A DNA stretch of 64,000 nt from Hydrogenophilales bacterium (GTDB lineage: Bacteria > Pseudomonadota > Gammaproteobacteria > Burkholderiales > Eutrophovitaceae): assembly GCA_902601765.1 (NCBI GenBank), contig CACKOO010000004.1, positions 5,321 to 69,320 on the forward strand, in the 5' to 3' direction. Positions 47,352-58,150 of the stretch are shown piece by piece. The translations under genes and the position numbers were made by a program. Each line of letters begins with the position of its first letter. Within the stretch, counting starts at the first letter, position 1. Below the pieces are notes generated by a model. The model was not told where the DNA came from. It saw only the letters and a program-made list of their open reading frames with translations, and ran no database searches.

Positions 47352-48356
47352 TCATTCGCCAGGCCGAAATTCTATGATCGCCAAGCCAAAATACTTTTGA
47401 GTATCGGTCAAAAAGTTTCGATAAACAAAGCCAGCTTTTTTTAATAGTTCAAAAAATGACTCCTTGGAGTATTTGTACGAATTCTCCGTGTGTATCGTCT
47501 CACCTCTATTGAATTCGAAACTCTCCCCGTCTATTAGAATTGACTGATCCTCAGAGCTTACTAGATGCATCTCGATTCGGTTTAGATCGTTATTATATCG
47601 AGCCAAGTGTGTGAACTTATCTTGCTTAAAGTTAGATCCGAAGTCGCGGTTCAACCGTGCCAAGAGGTTCAAGTTAAAAGCACTAGTGTATCCCTCAGGA
47701 TCGTTATACGCCAAGTTCAAGATATTTTTGGGTTTCGTTAAATCGACACCTATGATGCCAAACCCACCTAAACCTACGCACTGGCCTAATTTTTTTAAAA
47801 ATTCCGTCGCATCTGACGGTTCAAAGTTTCCTATTGTTGATCCGGGAAAAAACGCTATTTTTTCAAGCGAAGACGGCATAGTTGTTTCAAAAAATGACGG
47901 TCTTATCAAATCAAAGTCTCCTACTACACCAACAATATCTACCGAGGGATAATCTAAGGCCAAATTATGGCTAGAAGCAATCACTTCCTTTTTTGACACA
48001 TCTATCCCAATGTAACTAACTGGATTTAACGCTTGTATAAGTAGCCTGACTTTTTGCATATTACCAGCGCCTGGCTCTAGTATAAGCTTCCTCTTACCTA
48101 CTGACTTTCCGATTTTATCGGCATTTTGACTCAAAATACTAGTTTCCGTCTTCGTTTGATAATATGCAGATGTTTTACAAATTTTATTAAATAACTCACT
48201 TCCTTGAGCATCGTAAAAATATTTCGGTGAAATAACTTTTTGACTTTTATTTAAGCCTGACTTGATCTCTTCTATCTCAGATAGTTTTTTACTGTGCAGT
48301 TCTAACACCTGTAAATTTTGGGGTGTATCGTTAGTTTTTGCCTCTGTAAGTCCCAT
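47352..48356 (-). CDS. egtD: L-histidine N-alpha-trimethyltransferase (ergothioneine pathway)
   Basis: PKYFYDAQGSELF-IC, YYQT-TE, EPGAG, FFPGSTIGNF, GVDL-K, AYNDP-G, FNLNLL, RIEMHL, IHTENSYKY. Confidence 0.93.
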   Translation of the reverse strand: MGLTEAKTNDTPQNLQVLELHSKKLSEIEEIKSGLNKSQKVISPKYFYDAQGSELFNKICKTSAYYQTKTETSILSQNADKIGKSVGKRKLILEPGAGNMQKVRLLIQALNPVSYIGIDVSKKEVIASSHNLALDYPSVDIVGVVGDFDLIRPSFFETTMPSSLEKIAFFPGSTIGNFEPSDATEFLKKLGQCVGLGGFGIIGVDLTKPKNILNLAYNDPEGYTSAFNLNLLARLNRDFGSNFKQDKFTHLARYNNDLNRIEMHLVSSEDQSILIDGESFEFNRGETIHTENSYKYSKESFFELLKKAGFVYRNFLTDTQKYFGLAIIEFRPGE

Positions 48357-48507
48357 TAATTATCCTCTTAAGTATTTTATAGTTTTTTTATTAATTACGT
48401 TTATTGTGAACTGAACTCACTGCGAAGACAGATATGTAACGGTATAAATTCCAAAAAATACATCTTTTCCACTAAAAATAATGTAATAATCGCTCATTGA
48501 TTGTTAC

Positions 48508-49797
48508 TTGATCCTTAAAAATACGATGCAGCCGCAATATATTAACAGAGAAAAGAATTTTGCCGAACTAGTAGATACTTTTATCTCCGTGAGGCAAGTA
48601 ACGAAATTATTATCAAAGACTCTGTCGTCCGAGGATGCGGGAGCCCAAAGTGCACCGTTTACCAGTCCGGCTAAATGGCACCTTGCCCATACATCGTGGT
48701 TCTACGAAAAATTTATTCTGGAAGAGTACTTGGATTATTACAAAAAATTTAATGATAAATACGATCAACTTTTTAATTCATACTATAACTCCATAGGTCA
48801 AAGTTATGTCAGAAAAAAAAGAGGGCTAATTACCAGACCAAGCCTTGAAGAAATATATGATTTCAGACAATATGTTGACGACCATGTGATCAAGCTTATT
48901 GGTAACATGAGTCGAAGTAATTCGAAAAAGATTTCGGATAGATTAATTTTGGGCATAAATCACGAACAGCAACATCAGGAACTATTATTAACTGATATAA
49001 AACATCTTTTTTTTAATAACCCGTTGCTACCAGCCTATAAAAAAAGTGCTCGTCCACAAAATTCTGTTGACTCAGAGATAGCTAATAATTTGCTGAAAAT
49101 AAAAGGCGGCATTTATGAAATCGGTGCGACGGGAAATCATTCTTTTGTATTTGATAATGAAACTCCTTCAAACCGCGTTTTTCTAAAAGACTATGAAATT
49201 TTTTCTAAAACCATCACTAATCAAGAGTATTTAGAATTTATTATTGATGGAGGGTACCAAAATCCTTTGCTCTGGTTATCTGATGGTTGGGACAAAAAAA
49301 ATGAATTTTCTTGGAAAGCGCCGTTATATTGGATCGAAGAAGATAACGTTTGGCATCAGTTTACGCTCGGGGGTTTAGTAAAGTTGGTTGCCGAGGAACC
49401 CGTCTGTCATGTTAGTTTTTATGAAGCAGACGCTTTTGCCCGATGGTCGGGATGCCGACTTCCAACTGAGCCTGAATGGGAGATATCAAGTCTGACCTCA
49501 AAAGTGGGAGAAAACTTCTTAGAAAATGAACAATTGCACCCAATAATTACATCAAAATCCGCAAATTTTTTTGGCAATGTCTGGGAGTGGACTAGCAGTA
49601 GTTATCTCCCTTATCCTGGGTATGAAACTTTGCCTGGTTCTCTCGGCGAGTACAACGGTAAGTTTATGATTAATCAAATAGTATTGAAAGGCGGTTCATG
49701 TTTAACACCGCGGTCACATATTCGGCCTAGCTATCGTAATTTTTTTTACCCGGAAGATAGGTGGCAAGTCTCTGGTTTTCGCACAGTTACTAAATAA
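48508..49797 (+). CDS. egtB: Ergothioneine biosynthesis sulfoxide synthase (DinB + FGE-like domains); start TTG 48508 or ATG 48526
   Basis: SPAKWHLAHTSWFYE, LFNSYY, HEQQHQELLLTD (Fe-binding His), DNE, RLPTE-EWE, GNVWEWT, EYNGKFM, YRNFFYP-RWQ-SGFR. Confidence 0.92.
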   Translation: MILKNTMQPQYINREKNFAELVDTFISVRQVTKLLSKTLSSEDAGAQSAPFTSPAKWHLAHTSWFYEKFILEEYLDYYKKFNDKYDQLFNSYYNSIGQSYVRKKRGLITRPSLEEIYDFRQYVDDHVIKLIGNMSRSNSKKISDRLILGINHEQQHQELLLTDIKHLFFNNPLLPAYKKSARPQNSVDSEIANNLLKIKGGIYEIGATGNHSFVFDNETPSNRVFLKDYEIFSKTITNQEYLEFIIDGGYQNPLLWLSDGWDKKNEFSWKAPLYWIEEDNVWHQFTLGGLVKLVAEEPVCHVSFYEADAFARWSGCRLPTEPEWEISSLTSKVGENFLENEQLHPIITSKSANFFGNVWEWTSSSYLPYPGYETLPGSLGEYNGKFMINQIVLKGGSCLTPRSHIRPSYRNFFYPEDRWQVSGFRTVTK

Positions 49798-50131
49798 GAT
49801 TAACCTGCTAATGCCTAATTCTGTAGTTTCTAGGGGAATTTTCAATTTTAAAGTATCGCACGTCTTGCAAAAATTCGGGCTTCTCTTCACTTGTAAACAA
49901 AGATTATTTTCATCTAGTAGACCTGAGTGTGTAGACAGTACCACTGTTTTTGGGAGTTTAGAATAAATGGTGGAATAGTTGAAAGTCTTTGCGTAAAAAG
50001 TCACCCACTCAGTTCTAACCTTTGGATCAAAACGTTTTCCTGCTGTAGAATGAGTGTGAAGTACTTTATTGGCTAAGAAGAATTTACGATATTGTATTAA
50101 ACTATTGACAAAAAAATTAAAGGATAAATTC

Positions 50132-50635
50132 ATGAACTTCAATCCATTAACTGCCCTGTTTATAATCCTTTTAGGATTTACGCCCATCGCACATGCTCTT
50201 GATAAAAAACCTGTATTAAATTTAACGATAGCCAAAAAAATGGCAGACGCTTGTGAAGCTAATCAAGCTGAGTTGGGTTACAGAAAAATAAATATTGCTA
50301 TTGTTGATAATGGAGCAAACCTCATTTTATTTCGACGACAAAATGATGCCTTCTTAGGTAGTATAGATATAGCAATTTCTAAAGCAAAATCATCAGCCAG
50401 CTTTCCTTTTCCCACCCGTTTAATCGCTGAAATCGTTTACGGAAAAGATGGCAAACCAGGAAGAGTTCCAGGGCTTGCTCACTCCAAAGACGTAGTAGCT
50501 TTTGCTGGTGGACTTCCCATCACATCGAAAGATGGCGTTCTTTTAGGTGCCATCGGCGTAAGCGGTGCCAGTGCCGATGAAGATGAAATTTGTGCTCAAG
50601 CAGCGATAGACGCAGTAGCTAGCGAATTGGAGTAA
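50132..50635 (+). CDS. Secreted GlcG/HbpS-family (heme-binding-like) protein
   Basis: Signal peptide from ATG 50132 (...TPIAHA), IAIVD-G, AISKA, FAGGLPI, LGAIGVSGA-ADEDE-CA. Confidence 0.85.
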   Translation: MNFNPLTALFIILLGFTPIAHALDKKPVLNLTIAKKMADACEANQAELGYRKINIAIVDNGANLILFRRQNDAFLGSIDIAISKAKSSASFPFPTRLIAEIVYGKDGKPGRVPGLAHSKDVVAFAGGLPITSKDGVLLGAIGVSGASADEDEICAQAAIDAVASELE

Positions 50636-50673: not shown

Positions 50674-51351
50674 TTAATTAATAGTGGACCTTTCGTTTAT
50701 TGTCGCTAACATTCGTATTGCGGCGCATGCTGCTCCAAAACCATTGTCTATGTTAACTACAAGTATGCCAGACGAGCAACTAGCTAGCATAGCATTTAAT
50801 GCGGTTTCCCCTCCTTTCGCGACGCCGTATCCAACTGACGTGGGAACCCCAATAATTGGACAAGGAATTAGTCCTCCTAAAACTGTTGGGAGTGCTGCGT
50901 CCATTCCGGCTACAGTGATAACCAGGTGCATCGACCTTATCTGTTCAACTTTTTCTAATAATCTCCATAGACCGGCTACTCCTACATCATTAAAAAATAA
51001 ACTATCCTCTCCGTAATAAGCAAGAGTTCTCGCCGCTTCGGACGCAACGCGTAAATCAGAAGTTCCAGCTGAGACAATCGCTACTTTTGGATCAGAGGTC
51101 AATTCAATCTTTTCACCAACTAACCCAGTTTTCGAAAAGGCGTGATAATCAACTTTGTTTCTTAGGTTTAGTGGAAGGTTTTCTAATTGTCCCTTGGATA
51201 AATGGGTAAGCAACGCTCGGGATTTCTTTTTTACCAATGACTCAATAATATTTCCAATTTGCTCCACCGTTTTACTGAGGCAAAATATTGCTTCATCTAG
51301 ACCTGTCCTAGACGACCTTGTTAGATCCAACATATGCATGTCGTCTGTCAT
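50674..51351 (-). CDS. larB: NPN cofactor biosynthesis protein LarB (NaAD carboxylase/hydrolase)
   Basis: LDL-R-RTG-EAIFC-K, SAGTSD-VA-EA, DVGVAGLWRL, AGMDAALP, VPTSVGYG, ML-SCSSG-VVNIDNGFGAA. Confidence 0.93.
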   Translation of the reverse strand: MTDDMHMLDLTRSSRTGLDEAIFCLSKTVEQIGNIIESLVKKKSRALLTHLSKGQLENLPLNLRNKVDYHAFSKTGLVGEKIELTSDPKVAIVSAGTSDLRVASEAARTLAYYGEDSLFFNDVGVAGLWRLLEKVEQIRSMHLVITVAGMDAALPTVLGGLIPCPIIGVPTSVGYGVAKGGETALNAMLASCSSGILVVNIDNGFGAACAAIRMLATINERSTIN

Positions 51352-52145
51352 AACGATTGGTGTAAAAATGCACTACCTACTTTATAGTAATCAAATTTAA
51401 CAGTGTAGTTAAAGCCAGCTCTTGAAAAAATATCCATAGCTTTTCGTGAAATTTCCTCCCGCTTAATGTTGTTTAAGCTATTCATTGCAATATTGTCTAA
51501 CTCGATAAAAACGCCATTAGCTCTGACCCTACAACGGACATTTTTGGGCTTAATCAACCCACCAACCAACAATTCTGTTTCGTTAATCAAACCTAACAGT
51601 TTTCCCTGTATATGAATACCTGTCTCTACTCGACTTGCTAAACACGGCGATGAAGGTAATTCAGCTATCTCTCCCAGGCCAAGCTGTCGAGCAAGTTGTC
51701 GCACGTTTTCTTTTCCCATCTTAGCCTCTACAAAAGGATGGCGAACTCGATACCCCTTGGCCGCGTGAAGCCCCGGCCTAAACTCTTTCAAATCGTCCAA
51801 GTTTGTACCGGAAAATATCTGCTGATTGGTTAATGAACTGATTCTCGCGTAGAGGTTACTTTTACAATAAAAACACCGATTAGTTGGATTGTTCAAATAT
51901 CTTCTATCACTAAATTCGTTAGCGTCAATAATTTTAAGATTCCAATTTTCTTCTTTTGCCAACGCTTTTAATCTCTTGGTTGCCTGAGGGGGCACCGCTG
52001 GCGATACCGCATGAAAAATATTTACGAATCCCTGAAAAAATCGGTGGGTAAAAACTCCTAAAGTGAGACTATCGACACCACCACTAACTGCAATTGCTAA
52101 TGATTTTTCTGTTTCGAATTGTGTTAGTAAGTTATCGCTAATCAT
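51348..52145 (-). CDS. larE: NPN cofactor sulfur transferase LarE
   Basis: AVSGGVDS PP-loop, NPTNRCFYCK, GTNLDD-RPG-AA, PSSPCLASR; between larC and larB. Confidence 0.9.
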   Translation of the reverse strand: MISDNLLTQFETEKSLAIAVSGGVDSLTLGVFTHRFFQGFVNIFHAVSPAVPPQATKRLKALAKEENWNLKIIDANEFSDRRYLNNPTNRCFYCKSNLYARISSLTNQQIFSGTNLDDLKEFRPGLHAAKGYRVRHPFVEAKMGKENVRQLARQLGLGEIAELPSSPCLASRVETGIHIQGKLLGLINETELLVGGLIKPKNVRCRVRANGVFIELDNIAMNSLNNIKREEISRKAMDIFSRAGFNYTVKFDYYKVGSAFLHQSL

Positions 52146-52148
52146 TTT

Positions 52149-53354
52149 TTATTTCTTGGTAAGTGAATTTTTTTCTAAAGCTATTGCTTCGGCTTTTCCA
52201 CCTTCTATAGCACGCGCATGATGACCTCCAGGTAATCGCAATAAATCGTCAGCTTCGACTTTTCCTGAAATAAATCCCTGTCTATTAACTATTTTCACCC
52301 GAAATTCGTTTCCATTATAATCTACTTTCTCAATAGTTCGCTCTAAAATCACGCGCTCCATAATTTGATACCGTATTCCAATTGTTGTGGTTTCAAGGAA
52401 ACACTTGTTAATAACCAGATCAATTTTATCTATTTCAGAAACTATTTGAATAGATGTCGTCATTCTTCCTTTTTTACCTGATACAGAACTTTGTATAAGA
52501 TCTAAAACTCCGGAAATTTCTCGCAAACGTCCTACCGCGATTGATAAATGCTCTGGGCTTTGGTCATCCACCTCGAATTCTAACTTCGCAATCTTCTCAA
52601 TATTCTTATTTGACACATTTTCAGTAGTGAAAATTAAAACTCGTAAAATGTTTGGTAATTCCGAGAATTTTTGATTGCCAAATCCAACACCTGATTTATA
52701 CAATGTGCCCTCTCGCTTCGGTACGATACAAAAGTTTTTCAGATACTTTAGAATCGCAGCACCTGTTGGCGTGACTCGCTCACCCGCAACCCCATCGTCA
52801 AAAACCTGAAAGCCTTTTAACAAAAAAGAAGTGGCGGGAGCGGGTACCGGTAACTTCCCGTGTTGGGTGGATACTAGCCCACTCCCTAGAGGCAATGGAT
52901 CGAAGGACCAAACAGCATTTAATTGATTAATTAAAAAACTGGCACCTAAGATATCTATAATAGAGTCCCATTCTCCCAATTCATGAAAACTGATTGAATC
53001 AATTTCTATTCGATGTACAGCACTTTCCGCTTCAGCTACAAAAGAGAAAATTTCTTTTGCAATCAATTTTACTTTTTTGTCGATAGGAGTACTTTCGATA
53101 AATTTTAGAATATCAATAAAGTTGCCAGGAGTTTTATTTCGGTCCTTGTCTAATCCGATCTCTTTGACTGAAAATTTAGCTCCCCCTATTGAGTGGTTTT
53201 GGTAGGGCCTAACTTCGATTGACATTTCAGCAGGAGTTCCGGCTTTTTTGAGCATGGAGAGCATGTCATTCTCTAATTCGGGAAAAGCGTTGAGAAGACT
53301 CGCTATGAACATATCTCCGGCCACACCTCCGACTGGGTTTAAATGTATCCACAT
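52149..53354 (-). CDS. larC: NPN cofactor nickel insertase LarC (single ORF)
   Basis: GVAGDM, AESAVH-FHELG-DSIIDI, HG-LPVPAPAT, GERVTPTGAAIL, EVDDQSPE, KKGR, ETTTIGIR. Confidence 0.92.
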   Translation of the reverse strand: MWIHLNPVGGVAGDMFIASLLNAFPELENDMLSMLKKAGTPAEMSIEVRPYQNHSIGGAKFSVKEIGLDKDRNKTPGNFIDILKFIESTPIDKKVKLIAKEIFSFVAEAESAVHRIEIDSISFHELGEWDSIIDILGASFLINQLNAVWSFDPLPLGSGLVSTQHGKLPVPAPATSFLLKGFQVFDDGVAGERVTPTGAAILKYLKNFCIVPKREGTLYKSGVGFGNQKFSELPNILRVLIFTTENVSNKNIEKIAKLEFEVDDQSPEHLSIAVGRLREISGVLDLIQSSVSGKKGRMTTSIQIVSEIDKIDLVINKCFLETTTIGIRYQIMERVILERTIEKVDYNGNEFRVKIVNRQGFISGKVEADDLLRLPGGHHARAIEGGKAEAIALEKNSLTKK

Positions 53355-53371
53355 AAAATTATTATTTTTTT

Positions 53372-54694
53372 CTAAGCCAAAGCTTTTTCAACTTCTTCAC
53401 CAAGCATTGGATATAAGCTACCTTTCTTGTCATATTTGAAAGGCTGGGGTTTTCCTTTTATCTCAAACTTTTCGGGATTTGCCTTCACATAATCCAGCAA
53501 TGGCTCAGAAACCTGAATGTCAACCACTTCTAGGGTGTTTGCAATCCTAACAATTTTTAAGTCCTGGGATTTAACCCGGACTACCGTTTTCGATGCCAAA
53601 CTAATCGCTTCTTTATCGGTATTCATTATTATAGGGATTACTCCACCATCTAAATAAGTTGATGTAATAACATTCGCGTAAGTTTTAGGCACATCTAAAT
53701 TTTTGTATAAATTCATCGTTATAACATCAGCAGAGCCAATACCAGTAGCATTGCCATGCGTTTCGGGAGTAAGGCCAAGAACCGCGATTTTTTTTACATG
53801 AGGTTTCATGTTCCAGGCTACTCCGCGACTGTTACGGCCAGTAATATTGGGATCCATTCCTGCTCCAGAAATATTTTTCCCAATTTTTTCAATTACTAAA
53901 ACATCTATTTCCTCAAACTGTAAACTGGGCATAAAATTTTTAGCCAATGCTTGGAGTTCAGGCTCCCTCGTAAAAAGTTTTTCAGGGGTTACAGCCTCTA
54001 GAAGAGTAGTTTCATCTGCCGCGTTTTCGAGCATTGCAACACCGAAAAGAAAATTTTTATTCTTTAAAATGAATTGGGCCGTTTTGGGTAGCAATTCACC
54101 AAAAACATCCATACCAAAAGAATGAAGAGTGGTGGCACCGTCTATTTTTCCCATACCAATGGTCAACATTTTTACAATTCCGGATTCAATCGGTGCTCTA
54201 TAATTTGTATGTGGTTTTATTCGAGGGATAACAATAATTCCATCTGCGGATGCGGCATGTTTATCCATAAAAACAGGCATTCCATCTATTTTGCCAATTT
54301 CTTCGACCGCCATGTCAGATATAATCGGACACCCTATGAAGGATTCGTTGATCCCATATCCGTCAAGGACTTCTCGTTGCCCATCGGCGGTAGCGCCTCC
54401 GTGAGAACCCATTGCCGGAAACACGAAAGGCTTAGCCCCTAAGGCTTTTAACTCGTCAATTACAGTTTTAGTACATTCTGCAATATTTGCTATCCCCCGG
54501 GAACCACACCCTACGGCGATTCGCATACCCGGTTTCACTTTTCCTTTTATTTCAGGCCTTGAAAACTGTTGCCTAACGGCATTTTCAACACTTTTAAGTT
54601 TTTGCGTTTCAAATTTTTGCGTAATCTGCACCATATCAGGTAGAACAATATTTAGACCTCCACCAACATTTACTTCTATTTTTTCGCCAATCAC
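53372..54694 (-). CDS. LarA-superfamily (lactate racemase domain) NPN-dependent racemase/epimerase, substrate unknown (GTG start)
   Basis: GSRGIANI, PAMGSHGGAT, RIKPHT-ESG-KML-IGMGK-GA-LH, IGKNISGAGMDPNITGR; first gene of the larCEB operon; SD GGAG. Confidence 0.82.
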   Translation of the reverse strand: MIGEKIEVNVGGGLNIVLPDMVQITQKFETQKLKSVENAVRQQFSRPEIKGKVKPGMRIAVGCGSRGIANIAECTKTVIDELKALGAKPFVFPAMGSHGGATADGQREVLDGYGINESFIGCPIISDMAVEEIGKIDGMPVFMDKHAASADGIIVIPRIKPHTNYRAPIESGIVKMLTIGMGKIDGATTLHSFGMDVFGELLPKTAQFILKNKNFLFGVAMLENAADETTLLEAVTPEKLFTREPELQALAKNFMPSLQFEEIDVLVIEKIGKNISGAGMDPNITGRNSRGVAWNMKPHVKKIAVLGLTPETHGNATGIGSADVITMNLYKNLDVPKTYANVITSTYLDGGVIPIIMNTDKEAISLASKTVVRVKSQDLKIVRIANTLEVVDIQVSEPLLDYVKANPEKFEIKGKPQPFKYDKKGSLYPMLGEEVEKALA

Positions 54695-54923
54695 TTTAAA
54701 TCTCCTTAAAACTAAATTTTTCGTAAAAGATCAACTGGAAATAAATCCTCAAAATAGCCTACTATTATGGCCGTGTTGTATGCAAATAGTCTACTTACTT
54801 TTGCACTTCACGCTATGCTGGAAGTATGCCCTAAAATAGGGGCACCTCGCTACGGTGATCTACTTAACAAGCATTAATTTTTTAGGTGTTTTCCTTTTTT
54901 TTTACGTGATTGGGGATGAAATT

Positions 54924-56654
54924 ATGCAAAACGAGAAAAAACGACTCAAACTGAGAAGTCAGCGATGGTTCTCAACCAAAACACTGAGAGGTTCTGGTCA
55001 TAAATCGAGAATATTTCAGCTTGGATTGACGAGTGAAGATATTGATAATAAACCTATTATTGGGATTATTAATACGTGGAGTGAAATAAATCATTGTCAC
55101 TCTCATCTCAAGGACAGAGCAGCAAATGTGAAAACAGGAATTTCGCAATCTGGTGGTGTTCCCATAGAGATGCCAGCAATTTCACTCGCGGAAGTTTTCC
55201 AAAAACCCTCCACGATGATGTATCGAAACTTACTCGCCATGGAAACAGAAGAACTGTTGAGATCCTATCCTATCGATGGCTGTGTGCTGATGGGTGGCTG
55301 CGATAAAACGACACCAGCTTTGCTTATGGGAGCAATCAGTATGGATATACCGACTATTTTTGTTCCAGCCGGTGCCATGTTACGAGGACATTGGCGGGGA
55401 CAAACCCTCGGTTCCGGTTCAGATATTTGGAAATATTGGGACGAATTAAGGGCAGGCACAATATCAGAAAACGACTGGCAAGAAATGTTAGAGGGAATTG
55501 CAAGATCTCCTGGTACCTGTATGACAATGGGAACGGCATCTACCATGACATCTATAGCAGAGGTAATGGGGTTCACGTTACCAAATGCCTCCTCAATTCC
55601 AGCTCCAGACTCTGGGCACAGCCGAATGGCAACTTATTCCGGTAGAAGAATCGTTGAGATGGTAAAGGAGAATCTCAAACCCTCAGACATAATTACCAAA
55701 AATACAATAAATAATGCGATTCGTATTTTAATGGCTCTGGGAGGGTCCACTAACGGACTGATACACGTAATTGCCCTAGCTCGTCGGGCTGGTATTAATT
55801 TAGAACTGGATCATTTTGAAACTATTGGTCAAAAAACTCCTTTTCTTGTAAATTTACGTCCTGCCGGAAAATACTTAATGGAGGATTTTTACTATGCTGG
55901 CGGACTCAATGCCCTAATGGAAGGGATGAGAGACTTACTGGATACTGACGAAAAAACCTGTACAGGTCGATCCCTAGGGGAAAATATTCAAGGACAAAAA
56001 ATACACAATTCGGAAGTCATAAAAACCCCAAAGAAGCCCATAAACGCGACTGGTGGGCTTTTAGTTCTCCGAGGAAACCTAGCTCCTGACGGTGCTATTA
56101 TAAAGGCTAACGCGGCTGATCCGAAGTTTCATGAGCATACGGGACCCGCCATTGTGTTTGATAGTTATGCACAGATGTCCAAAATAATTGATGACCCTAA
56201 GCTGAAAATTACAAAAGAATCCGTCTTAGTTTTAAGAAATTCTGGACCAATTGGCGGCCCAGGGATGCCAGAATGGGGAATGTTACCAATTCCTAAAAAG
56301 CTCTTGAAGCAAGGGGTCCGTGATATGGTCCGAATTTCTGATGCTCGGATGAGTGGTACTAGCTATGGAACTTGTATTCTGCATGTTGCGCCTGAGTCTT
56401 GGGTAGGAGGACCGCTTGGTTTAGTAAAAACAGGTGATCTTATTAAGTTAAGCGTACGAGAAAGAACCCTTAATCTGATGGTTTCCAAAACAGAGCTTGA
56501 ATCTCGCAAAAAACATCTCACGAAGAAACCAGCGAGGTTCTCGCGGGGTTACGGAAAAATGTTTTCCACACACGTACTTCAAGCGAATGAGGGGTGTGAC
56601 TTTGATTTCCTTCAGACCAACCAAGAAATCACTCCTGAACCCTATATTGATTAA
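54924..56654 (+). CDS. IlvD/Edd-family [2Fe-2S] sugar-acid dehydratase (L-arabinonate-dehydratase-like)
   Basis: LRSQRWF, NTWSEINHCH, MYRNLLAMETEE, GGCDKTTP, GTCMTMGTASTM, GGSTN, GGPGMPEWG, SDARMSGTSYG. ATG 54924 preferred over track GTG 54855. Confidence 0.88.
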   Translation: MQNEKKRLKLRSQRWFSTKTLRGSGHKSRIFQLGLTSEDIDNKPIIGIINTWSEINHCHSHLKDRAANVKTGISQSGGVPIEMPAISLAEVFQKPSTMMYRNLLAMETEELLRSYPIDGCVLMGGCDKTTPALLMGAISMDIPTIFVPAGAMLRGHWRGQTLGSGSDIWKYWDELRAGTISENDWQEMLEGIARSPGTCMTMGTASTMTSIAEVMGFTLPNASSIPAPDSGHSRMATYSGRRIVEMVKENLKPSDIITKNTINNAIRILMALGGSTNGLIHVIALARRAGINLELDHFETIGQKTPFLVNLRPAGKYLMEDFYYAGGLNALMEGMRDLLDTDEKTCTGRSLGENIQGQKIHNSEVIKTPKKPINATGGLLVLRGNLAPDGAIIKANAADPKFHEHTGPAIVFDSYAQMSKIIDDPKLKITKESVLVLRNSGPIGGPGMPEWGMLPIPKKLLKQGVRDMVRISDARMSGTSYGTCILHVAPESWVGGPLGLVKTGDLIKLSVRERTLNLMVSKTELESRKKHLTKKPARFSRGYGKMFSTHVLQANEGCDFDFLQTNQEITPEPYID

Positions 56655-56655
56655 C

Positions 56656-57129
56656 TTAATCTTTTTGGGGTTCGGAGTGAATATTATCTACCCAAAATAC
56701 CTGTTCAGGTTCCTCAACCGTCGGGATTTTTAGGTTGACAACCACTGGGTCTTGCCCACTGCGACAAAGGACGCACGATAGCGGTTCATCCTCCAAAGCG
56801 TTGATCTCTTGGTGTGGTACAAAGGGTGGTACGTAGATAAACTCACCGGCATTAGCTTCCGCCACAAATTCTAATTTTTCGCCCCATCTCATACGAGCTT
56901 TTCCTTTAACCACATAGATCACGCTCTCTACTGGTCCATGATGGTGAGCTCCAGTTTTTGCGTTAGGCTCTATAATTACAGTACCAGCCCAAAGCTTTTG
57001 AGCGCCTCCAATTTTACTGGATACAGCAGCAGCTCTTTTCATACCAGGTGTTTGTGGAGTTTTACTATCGAAATCAGTCGAAGTTATTACTCTAACTCCG
57101 TCATATTTCCATTTACTTGACTGGGTCAT
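56656..57129 (-). CDS. Cupin-domain protein of unknown function
   Basis: TGAHHHG-ESVIYVV-G and FIYVPPFVPHQE metal-binding cupin motifs; ATG 57129 overlaps the tsaC stop. Confidence 0.85.
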   Translation of the reverse strand: MTQSSKWKYDGVRVITSTDFDSKTPQTPGMKRAAAVSSKIGGAQKLWAGTVIIEPNAKTGAHHHGPVESVIYVVKGKARMRWGEKLEFVAEANAGEFIYVPPFVPHQEINALEDEPLSCVLCRSGQDPVVVNLKIPTVEEPEQVFWVDNIHSEPQKD

Positions 57130-58150
57130 GTAATTTGCCACTTAAATTTTTATATTTGGTGTTTTTTATATATTCCCGAAGCGCTATTTTTGGTGTAGAG
57201 CTTTTTCCTAAACGATCATGGATAGCCAACCATTCGTTTTTGTAAGGAGGTTCCTCAACCGCAATTAGGCTACATCCAGAATTATCAAGCCTACGCAACA
57301 AAGAATAAAGATTTTTAGCATACTGTCGTGGACCGTGGGGTGCCGCCTGCCAGACGGCCGCTCCCGAAAACGGTGGTCTAACAGACCTACCCAGCACGGC
57401 GACCGGAATGCCACTAGTTTGTGAATGTAAAAATTTTTCTAATCGGTCTCTATAAATAACTGTTAACGGGATGACAGGTGCATAATGAACTGGGCAAGAT
57501 CCTGGTGCTTTTTTTCGTTCTGATTCCTCAGCTAAGGTAATATCCAATCCCAAAGCTAAGCTAATTTGCCTTTGATCAATCATTCCTGGCCGCAAAATTA
57601 CTGGCACCTCCCTACTTACATCCACAATAGTCGATTCGATACCTATGGGGCATGTTTCACCCTTTATGATGATGTCAACTTTACCACCTAGTTCTTGGAA
57701 CACATCCTGTGGAGACGTCGGCGACAATCTACCAAAACGATTAGCTGACGGCCCGACAATACCTCCCCCCAAACCATTAATAAGCTCTCTCGCTATCGGA
57801 TTAGAAGGGACTCTGATCGCTATCGTATCCTGTTCCCCACAAAAGTGCCTCGCTACCTCTCCTTTCGATTTAAACACAAGAGTTAATGGTCCTGGCCAAA
57901 ACTTCTCTCCTAAAACTCGTGCAACAGGCGGTATATTTGCAACCCAGCGGTCTGCCTTGTCCAAACCGGAAAGGTGTAAAATTAACGGATGATTTCTAGG
58001 ACGGCCCTTCGCTGCGTAGACTCGATTAACAGCACTGGGAGATGTTGCATCAGCCCCCAAGCCAAAAACGGTTTCCGTTGGAAACCCCACTATTCCTCCG
58101 GTTTTTAAACAATTTATAGCTTGTTGAATCTGCTTCTCTAGTGTCGTCAT
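57113..58150 (-). CDS. tsaC: L-threonylcarbamoyladenylate synthase (Sua5/TsaC, long form)
   Basis: PTETVFGLGADA, KGRP-HPLI, FWPGPLT, PSANRFG-SPT, GIESTIVD, ILRPG, HYAP, LY-LR-LD. Confidence 0.93.
   Translation of the reverse strand: MTTLEKQIQQAINCLKTGGIVGFPTETVFGLGADATSPSAVNRVYAAKGRPRNHPLILHLSGLDKADRWVANIPPVARVLGEKFWPGPLTLVFKSKGEVARHFCGEQDTIAIRVPSNPIARELINGLGGGIVGPSANRFGRLSPTSPQDVFQELGGKVDIIIKGETCPIGIESTIVDVSREVPVILRPGMIDQRQISLALGLDITLAEESERKKAPGSCPVHYAPVIPLTVIYRDRLEKFLHSQTSGIPVAVLGRSVRPPFSGAAVWQAAPHGPRQYAKNLYSLLRRLDNSGCSLIAVEEPPYKNEWLAIHDRLGKSSTPKIALREYIKNTKYKNLSGKLHDPVK

Follow-up and report, generated by a model that had tools for sequence, protein, structure and literature searches.

A divergent LarA-fold enzyme of nickel-pincer group 22, encoded with its cofactor operon beside a sugar-acid dehydratase: a candidate C2 epimerase of sugar acids

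We analysed a 64,000-nucleotide stretch of DNA (the window) from a Hydrogenophilales bacterium (contig CACKOO010000004.1), in which a gene for a LarA-superfamily enzyme, here called g22A, lies between nickel-pincer nucleotide (NPN) biosynthesis genes and a dehydratase gene on the opposite strand. The minus-strand genes are larB, for the carboxylase/hydrolase of nicotinic acid adenine dinucleotide (50674-51351; NF033503, 256.7 bits, cut-off 175), larE, for the sulfur transferase (51348-52145; TIGR00268, 223.6 bits, cut-off 150), larC, for a fused LarC1+LarC2 protein of nickel insertion (52149-53354; TIGR00299, 167.5 bits, cut-off 90; NF052512, 95.6 bits, cut-off 50; Pfam Ni_insertion, 295.6 bits), and g22A itself, with a GTG start and 440 residues (53372-54694; NF052515, 518.3 bits, cut-off 400). 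According to the table of open reading frames (ORFs), 17 nt separate g22A from larC and 3 nt larC from larE, while larE and larB overlap by 4 nt, as a first, sequence-only reading of this DNA had described; 50674-54694(-) is one operon. LarB, LarE and LarC are contiguous and all exceed their NCBIfam equivalog cut-offs, so that the set for NPN biosynthesis is complete. On the plus strand, an IlvD/Edd [2Fe-2S] sugar-acid dehydratase of 576 residues is encoded at 54924-56654 (NF009559, 931.5 bits, cut-off 882). Its ORF is open from a GTG at 54855, but the family profiles match from residue 25 and an ATG stands at 54924, which gives a divergent intergenic region of 229 bp (54695-54923), in agreement with the ~230 bp reported earlier. 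A Pfam and NCBIfam scan of the flanks found no lactate permease or other lactate gene adjoining the lar operon, which also bears out the earlier reading.

The product of g22A belongs to NF052515, "nickel pincer cofactor-dependent isomerase, group 22", a family that is catalogued but uncharacterised and of which g22A is another member. Group 22 sits at the edge of the Pfam Lar_N model, with 23.1 bits for g22A (cut-off 23.3); DUF362 reaches 22 against 24, and LarA_C gives no match. Neither a phmmer search with g22A nor a 92-sequence family profile found a solved LarA structure in the PDB. Nevertheless, an AlphaFold2 model built on the 92-sequence alignment (predicted local distance difference test 94.7) retrieved LarA-family structures at all of Foldseek ranks 1-13 (E 1e-10 to 1e-8, probability 1.00, template modelling score ~0.42-0.54, 12-15% identity), among them 9EIA (best), 9Q3J, 8EZF, 2YJG, 7S91, 5HUQ, 6C1W, 4NAR and 6D6Z. 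Residues were mapped by hhalign of the family profile to the canonical LarA homolog of the same genome and from there to the 5HUQ/6C1W numbering. R66 aligns with R75 of LarA, H98 (in GSH) with H108, H162 (in KPHT) with H174, K175 (in SGIVK) with K184 and H191 (in TLHS) with H200; K175 and H191, at the positions of the tether Lys and the nickel-ligand His, are 16 residues apart. The assignment of NPN and catalytic residues proposed in the sequence-only reading is thus correct. Across 92 diverse group-22 members H98, K175 and H191 do not vary, and R66, H162 and Lys273 of the C-terminal domain are at least 90% conserved. In the Isosphaera LarA, according to the available text of PMC11851776, the carboxylic acid group that every known LarA substrate shares is bound by an Arg and two His. 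As modelled, g22A is a genuine, divergent LarA-fold enzyme with the full set of catalytic and NPN-binding residues.

Compared with LarA of L. plantarum (5HUQ, 6C1W), g22A shares the two-domain fold, the equivalents of the five residues above and an encoding together with larB, larE and larC. It differs in sequence (12-15% identity), in a loop three residues longer (13 against 10) from the second His to the tether Lys, in the lack of conservation of D72, in Thr-Asn instead of the Phe-Phe read in 6C1W after the second catalytic His, and in having no lactate genes nearby. Its PAMGSHGG and GKNISGAGMD motifs are unlike ATGFHRP and YQAVKG of that enzyme, as had been noticed from the letters. The best Foldseek match, LarAH2 of Isosphaera pallida (9EIA, 9EID), is a broad-spectrum 2-hydroxyacid racemase with the same catalytic logic; it is only ~14% identical to g22A and prefers small aliphatic hydroxy acids. 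The top fold matches also include the single-His LarA-like enzymes of Desguin group 17 (9Q3J, 9Q2U), NPN enzymes with a divergent LarA fold and a suspected carbohydrate role (available text of PMC12611868); there Asn replaces the second catalytic His, whereas group 22 keeps both.

Group 22 is a large family, with 1108 clusters at 50% identity (E <=1e-30) and carriers in Burkholderiales, Roseobacters, Firmicutes and haloarchaea; NF052515 scores reach 483.4 bits in Sulfitobacter, 554.9 in Paenibacillus and 490.1 in Haloarcula. The hexonate model NF052594 does not match g22A. Sister NCBIfam models are named after LarAH5, 6, 10, 14/15/16 and "18 hexonate", from which we infer that NCBIfam "group 22" is group 22 of the 25 groups of Desguin 2020 (PMC7583248, available text). 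The 13 proteins assayed according to that text include none of group 22, and the main texts of PMC7583248 and PMC11770544, supplements aside, contain no mention of "LarAH22" or "group 22". In the searchable literature "LarAH22" does not occur and no assayed group-22 member was found; among the matches listed for sugar-acid literature, "nickel-pincer" is absent.

The dehydratase passes the NF009559 model (L-arabinonate dehydratase) and fails TIGR00110 (ilvD, 445.5 bits against 618). Its closest solved relative is PuDHT of Paralcaligenes ureilyticus (8EJ0, 577 bits), followed by the L-arabinonate dehydratase of Rhizobium leguminosarum (5J83/9EVV, 548 bits), while plant and bacterial dihydroxy-acid dehydratases stay at or below 326 bits. 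Aligned with 8EJ0, it keeps Cys57, Cys125, Cys198, Glu449, Ser476 and Thr478, that is, the three Cys ligands, the Glu and the Ser/Thr of the MSGT motif that both the Rhizobium enzyme (5J83/5J84/9EVV) and PuDHT have. It differs from them in carrying Arg at the position of PuDHT Trp28 and in its C-terminus, to which we return below. PuDHT accepts D-gluconate, D-galactonate, D-xylonate and L-arabinonate but does not dehydrate 2,3-dihydroxyisovalerate; sugar-acid dehydratases conserve its Thr478, where other dehydratases of the family have Ala or Gly (available text of PMC10107998). By these signatures the window enzyme classes as a sugar-acid dehydratase of the L-arabinonate/PuDHT clade and not as a dihydroxy-acid dehydratase, which upholds the type assigned to it in the sequence-only reading.

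The stronger evidence that enzymes of these two kinds are functionally paired lies outside Burkholderiales. Among annotated plasmid records there were 117 matches to group 22, of which eight loci were inspected. On plasmids of Sulfitobacter indolifex and Pseudosulfitobacter pseudonitzschiae, araD, a gene of the dihydrodipicolinate synthase (DHDPS) family (KdgD-like, under cut-off) and a nearby GntR regulator occupy one side of the cluster, and a UxaA-family dehydratase, the group-22 gene and larC the other; both clusters also contain genes for an NADP-aldehyde dehydrogenase and a 2-hydroxyacid dehydrogenase, and that of S. indolifex alone an HpcH-type aldolase. The Sulfitobacter-type araD scores 1079 bits with NF009559 and is 58% identical to the window dehydratase, and the group-22 gene linked to it scores 483 bits with NF052515. 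In Loktanella salsilacus a tripartite tricarboxylate transporter (TTT), IlvD/Edd, Ldh-family, DHDPS-family, UxaA-family, group-22 and lar genes are found together. Paenibacillus cellulositrophicus carries uxaC, a group-22 gene, a short-chain dehydrogenase/reductase gene, larE, larB and larC; Marinovum algicola has lar genes, a tripartite ATP-independent periplasmic transporter and a group-22 gene opposite genes for 2-keto-3-deoxy-6-phosphogluconate (KDPG) aldolase and 2-keto-3-deoxygalactonate kinase; and Sporomusa termitida has an enolase-superfamily gene, a TTT transporter, a group-22 gene and UxaA-family genes. The haloarchaeal plasmid loci L184 (6456-9266) and L185 (7926-12107) both have a DUF4147 gene beside the group-22 gene, and one of them also has enolase-type, FAH-family and Gfo/Idh/MocA genes; no lar genes lie within 8 kb on each side of either copy, and the haloarchaeal members may form a sub-clade with another substrate. 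Haloarchaeal group-22 members are annotated as "DUF362 domain-containing protein".

A wider survey drew on 80 metagenome loci that the family profile had retrieved. Close relatives (L087-L094) were set aside, and from the 72 loci L095-L166 another 20 were removed by eye as very short or duplicate (L100, L101, L110, L111, L115, L116, L117, L119, L123, L132, L136, L141, L143, L146, L149, L157, L159, L160, L162, L164). In the remaining 52 loci, Pfam families were tallied for the two nearest neighbours on each side, ORFs below 110 residues being dropped, which gave 164 proteins. GD_AH (altronate/galactarate dehydratase) was found in 7 of the 164, short-chain dehydrogenase in 6, 2-hydroxyacid dehydrogenase in 4, PdxA and DctM in 3 each, and IlvD/Edd, UxaC, GntP, DUF1537-type kinase domains, FGGY kinase and KDPG aldolase in 2 each. 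In a tblastn context scan, 17 of 73 distant group-22 copies had a gene of the UxaA, IlvD/Edd or enolase type no more than 6 kb away; the set of copies was not de-duplicated and includes the near-identical pairs L112/L115, L114/L116 and L139/L146. The UxaA/GarD superfamily includes a Herbaspirillum D-arabinonate dehydratase and acts on pentonates too (PMC6336799, available text). The recurrence of three unrelated dehydratase superfamilies beside one family of isomerases is what the logic of an epimerase followed by a dehydratase predicts.

With the LarA fold and the Arg/His/His/Lys/His set, g22A most likely works as LarA does. Arg66, His98 and His162 would provide carboxylate binding and the acid/base pair, Lys175 the covalent tether of the NPN cofactor and His191 a nickel ligand. 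The cofactor would accept a hydride from C2 of a 2-hydroxy acid, leaving a planar 2-keto acid, and its return onto the opposite face would result in racemisation or C2-epimerisation. A sugar acid, either an aldonate or an aldarate, is the most probable substrate, given that NF052515 members of other phyla occur in sugar-acid gene clusters next to dehydratases from three unrelated superfamilies. Dehydration of a sugar acid removes the C2 stereocentre. An epimerase would consequently let one stereospecific dehydratase use both C2 epimers.

A role of g22A as a sugar-acid C2 epimerase is therefore likely on grounds of gene context and residue conservation, and it is plausible that it feeds the dehydratase next to it. 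For the whole proposal, an NPN-dependent C2 epimerase of a sugar acid coupled to this dehydratase, we estimate a probability of about 0.55, and a higher one for a sugar-acid substrate taken alone. The idea of an epimerase feeding the dehydratase had been advanced in the sequence-only reading; the sugar-acid clusters around the same family elsewhere speak for it, while in Burkholderiales the most constant neighbours of g22A are others. The candidate new pathway suggested there is a hypothesis, the family being already catalogued. A precedent exists in GntE (LarAH19 of C. glutamicum, LarAH20 of T. maritima), where NPN-dependent C2 epimerisation of an aldonate was first inferred from sugar-acid gene context, by the same logic as here; GntE belongs to another LarA group, and the "E-V/S" loop signature of groups 18-20 differs from the g22A motifs (available text of PMC7583248). 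The uxaC, group-22 and short-chain dehydrogenase/reductase cluster of Paenibacillus resembles a uronate route. If epimerase activity were found, it could extend nickel-pincer enzymology by a new reaction and explain how "wrong" C2 epimers of sugar acids are funnelled into non-phosphorylative pathways.

The cofactor operon probably has other clients as well. The assembly of this organism (1.38 Mb in 55 contigs, 66% complete, for a genome of ~2 Mb) contains three LarA-superfamily genes, and the description of g22A as an orphan homolog has to be dropped. A paralog, g22B, lies on another contig (C5; locus L012, 7907-12093); it scores 529.9 bits with NF052515, is 54% identical to g22A and passes Lar_N (36.2 bits). 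Directly upstream of it is the canonical Lar_N+LarA_C homolog, whose closest solved structure is Isosphaera pallida LarAH2 (9EIA, E 3e-88), and downstream are a Rid-family gene and a Tas-like aldo-keto reductase gene (NF007912, 434.6 bits, cut-off 415). The pair of canonical homolog and g22B is kept in families f1, f268 and f285. As tblastn of the assembly found larB, larC and larE in the window only, one cofactor operon would serve at least three clients, g22A and the two enzymes encoded on the other contig, in an organism of ~2 Mb. Retention of the nickel system, which had been taken as a sign of one important substrate, can thus not be credited to g22A alone.

Group 22 occurs in 50 of 401 genomes of the same order, nearly all with two copies, and in 1 of 399 other genomes of a class-wide sample, which is uninformative in this respect. 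In a FastTree phylogeny, with local supports only and several long branches flagged, the Burkholderiales copies form sister clades A (32 rows, support 97) and B (26 rows, support 95), joined at 99. Genome G014 and its relatives carry, after g22B, an enolase-superfamily gene (L048, 7809-8996, and at the same place in L050, L052, L054 and L056) whose best models are arabinonate, galactonate and talarate/galactarate dehydratases, all under cut-off; in the genome studied here the Rid and aldo-keto reductase genes stand in its place. It is tempting to propose that group 22 would be a large family of NPN-dependent sugar-acid epimerases, paralog A feeding an IlvD/Edd and paralog B an enolase-type dehydratase. 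Elsewhere in the assembly, contig C19 (L182, 2168-4668) carries a UxaA/GarD-family dehydratase gene (GarD 395 bits, cut-off 731), its product being 48% identical to the Sulfitobacter one, followed by a gene for a CitE/RipC-like C-C lyase, and an HpaI/GarL-like aldolase gene adjoins a non-DapA gene of the DHDPS family. The genome would hence hold candidate enzymes for onward use of a 2-keto-3-deoxy acid, none of them linked to the window. At least six enolase-superfamily matches were also seen in the assembly, many for a ~2-Mb genome.

The neighbourhood of g22A in Burkholderiales has a history of its own. In a first pass we took ~9.4-kb flanks around 40 group-22 copies. In these loci g22A-larC-larE-larB is a constant unit, and glgA lies directly upstream of g22A in 18 of 25 loci, usually with glgB and a divergent glgC beyond it. 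The gaps between glgA and g22A are ~76-140 bp, the adjacency extends across families f1, f10, f268, f274 and f285, and glgA is still attached to g22A where glgB and glgC are gone (L053, L055, L061). The dehydratase, on the other hand, was inside the flanks in 9 loci; it adjoined g22A only in close kin and in genus g5 (L001, L002, L007, L047, L049, L051), was at a distance of 1.8 kb in L061 and of 7.2 kb in L053, and stood downstream of larB in L003. That the dehydratase is absent from most loci was considered and rejected, as a wider search put the gene just past the ~9.4-kb flanks.

Linkage was then scored by hand comparison of group-22 and dehydratase coordinates across the 401 genomes. Of the 50 group-22 genomes, 22, from the same five families, carry a dehydratase of 64-100% identity no more than 16.1 kb away on the same contig; in two further genomes the distance is 35 and 60 kb. 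The pairing is thus shared by other genomes, in three arrangements: head-to-head in a few (G000, G006, G011, G014, G016), divergent with glycogen genes between (for example G451, G498, G633, G462, G588, G008), and with the dehydratase downstream of larB on the same strand (G514/L173, L003). In the larger genomes, larB, larE, larC, g22A, glgA and glgB read in one direction (glgB being outermost), and glgC, two glycoside hydrolase family 57 (GH57) genes, the second of them 4-alpha-glucanotransferase-like, variable genes and the dehydratase follow in the other, with a convergent cupin gene further on; the dehydratase and g22A are 5-16 kb apart, with the glycogen genes in between. The genes between vary and include an ATP-binding cassette (ABC) transporter in G588 and a CBS protein in G008. 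The order glgC, divergent from glgB-glgA-g22A-larC-larE-larB and followed by two GH57 genes, was seen in relatives at the loci L005, L057 and others (L005, L057, L059, L068-L078, L081-L089, L167-L172). GlgA (PF08323) was found in none of five genomes of 1.7-2.1 Mb from genera g1 and g5, three of them at least 97% complete, nor by tblastn in the assembly studied here, and the small genomes without glgA keep both g22A-larCEB and the dehydratase.

Since relatives have a glycogen cluster at this place that the small genomes have lost, the 229-bp spacer is the scar of a ~10-kb deletion. The head-to-head pairing is a derived state and not an ancestral bidirectional unit. The scan for promoters and terminators counted 13 promoter-like sites in the spacer against 15.3 expected, that is, not over chance. 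The argument from a shared promoter region, made in the sequence-only reading, consequently falls away, and the case serves as a caution that, in a streamlined genome, two genes can share a divergent promoter region as the scar of a deletion and not by regulatory design. The arrangement with the dehydratase after larB (G514, L003) could have originated by one inversion.

Besides this derived origin of the pairing, several observations weigh against a coupling of g22A to the dehydratase. A single deletion or a single inversion suffices to derive all three arrangements from one ancestral layout, so that the linkage in Burkholderiales may reflect inherited synteny and not selection; since descent accounts for it, the evidence from that order is ambiguous. 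It is larCEB and glgA, and not the dehydratase, that accompany the g22A orthologs most constantly. The dehydratase clade is present in 151 of 401 genomes and group 22 in 50 of 401, so that most such dehydratases must work without an enzyme of the g22A type, and family f260 has two group-22 copies with neither lar genes nor dehydratase in 20-kb stretches (L062-L067); the unpublished genomes G703 and G616 enter only these two tallies and the remark on f260. Outside the order, 56 of the 73 distant copies have no dehydratase within 6 kb, many of the contigs being short, and the seeds of the context scan were picked after the plasmid annotations had been seen. The window's own cluster contains no transporter, regulator or downstream enzyme. 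Moreover, the dehydratase ends in ..PEPYID (56634-56654), whereas 17 of 17 Burkholderiales orthologs end in ..EPEIH. The terminal His enters the active site of the neighbouring subunit, tunes substrate preference and is fully conserved in sugar-acid dehydratases (PMC11316719, available text). The window enzyme may accordingly be impaired or re-specialised. The araD products linked to group 22 in Roseobacters have Tyr or Phe as the terminal residue.

These observations make it a serious alternative, if a less probable one than the coupling proposed here, that the two genes are neighbours by descent only, g22A being a default NPN client that acts on an unrelated 2-hydroxy acid and the dehydratase the next gene to survive the deletion of the glycogen cluster. 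The ancestral order would have been the dehydratase, variable genes, two GH57 genes, glgC and, divergently, glgB, glgA, g22A and larCEB, and the scarcity of the dehydratase within the fetched flanks compared with glgA, the loss of glgA from the small genomes, the differing genes in between (the transporter of G588, the CBS protein of G008) and the chance-level count of promoter-like sites all fit with it. Descent does not account for the renewed co-localisation of NF052515 and NF009559 on Roseobacter plasmids, in another order and in another bacterial class, nor for the non-homologous sugar-acid dehydratases adjoining other group-22 members, and strongly reduced genomes kept both genes. The constancy of glgA raises the question of whether g22A, in a glgB-glgA-g22A-larCEB unit that most carriers would transcribe as one, serves alpha-glucan metabolism and acts on a neutral or phosphorylated sugar, or by other hydride chemistry, and not as a 2-hydroxy-acid epimerase. 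We regard this as improbable; if true, it would mean new chemistry for the LarA fold. The adjacency in five families, maintained without glgB and glgC, is in its favour, as are the carbohydrate chemistry beyond hydroxy acids suspected for other LarA-like subfamilies (PMC12611868, available text) and the intermolecular hydride transfer on sugars that NPN supports in an unrelated fold (PMC13524815, available text). However, lineages without any GlgA keep g22A-larCEB, the enzyme retains the pair of catalytic His and the Arg for carboxylate binding that are typical of racemases with acid substrates, and distant members have no glg neighbours, apart from weak, 24%-identity nucleotidyltransferase matches in L127 and L131.

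Two simpler identities for the proteins themselves are both very unlikely. Close homologs of g22A carry the names "nickel-dependent lactate racemase" and "lactate racemase domain-containing protein", but an ordinary lactate racemase is hardly compatible with the lack of any match to the lactate racemase model NF033504 (460-bit cut-off), with Lar_N under its cut-off and LarA_C unmatched, with solved LarA structures that remain unseen by phmmer and profile and are 12-15% identical, with Thr-Asn in place of Phe-Phe or with the absence of lactate genes nearby; g22A is classed apart from the lactate racemases, in line with the sequence-only reading. Similarly, the dehydratase is the sole IlvD/Edd gene found in the 66%-complete assembly, as would be expected of a plain dihydroxy-acid dehydratase for the synthesis of branched-chain amino acids. 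Against this identity stand its TIGR00110 and NF009559 scores, the Thr of MSGT, and the genomes G001 and G002 of the same genus, which have two IlvD/Edd genes each, the second copy in G002 being a true ilvD (TIGR00110, 732.6 bits against 618).

Within the divergent region, a 16-nt stretch at 54826-54841 (minus-strand reading TATTTTAGGGCATACT) is near-identical in the window, L001 and L002. By intergenic alignment, which gives no operator evidence, the motif TATTTTAGGGCATACT is common only to the window and these two closest relatives, and a related stretch, GTGGCATACTATA, is present in L007, L049 and L051; stretches of this type may be a putative promoter element. Contigs from RNA-labelled libraries (X1-X3) match pieces of larB, larE and g22A with at least 95% identity, 54528-54800 among them, with DNA carry-over possible. 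X1 and X2 hold the same pieces at near-identical coordinates; the matches are too sparse to indicate expression, and the gap over the dehydratase carries no meaning.

Beyond larB, the scan of the flanks found genes for an HbpS-like protein, EgtB, EgtD and an AAA protein. The HbpS-like/GlcG-like gene (50069-50635(+); Pfam PF03928, 104.5 bits) is convergent with larB and keeps its place next to it in many loci from several families (L001, L002, L004, L007, L047-L051, L057, L059, L068-L072, L081, L087); the protein may or may not be part of the lar system. The ergothioneine genes egtD (342 bits) and egtB (531 bits) are divergently arranged at 47352-49797, adjoining the lar operon, and this position recurs in L001, L002, L053, L055, L057 and L068. 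Beyond the dehydratase come genes for a cupin, Sua5, PurC, PurK, PurE and a class-II fructose-1,6-bisphosphate aldolase. The cupin (161 residues, 56656-57141(-), Pfam Cupin_2), convergent with the dehydratase, has no NCBIfam family match and a weak Pfam match to the dimethylsulfoniopropionate-lyase cupin. It also stands beside the dehydratase ortholog in L001, L002, L061, L167, L168, L171 and L175, and it travels with that ortholog, convergent and 0-1.3 kb off, in families f1, f10, f268 and f274.

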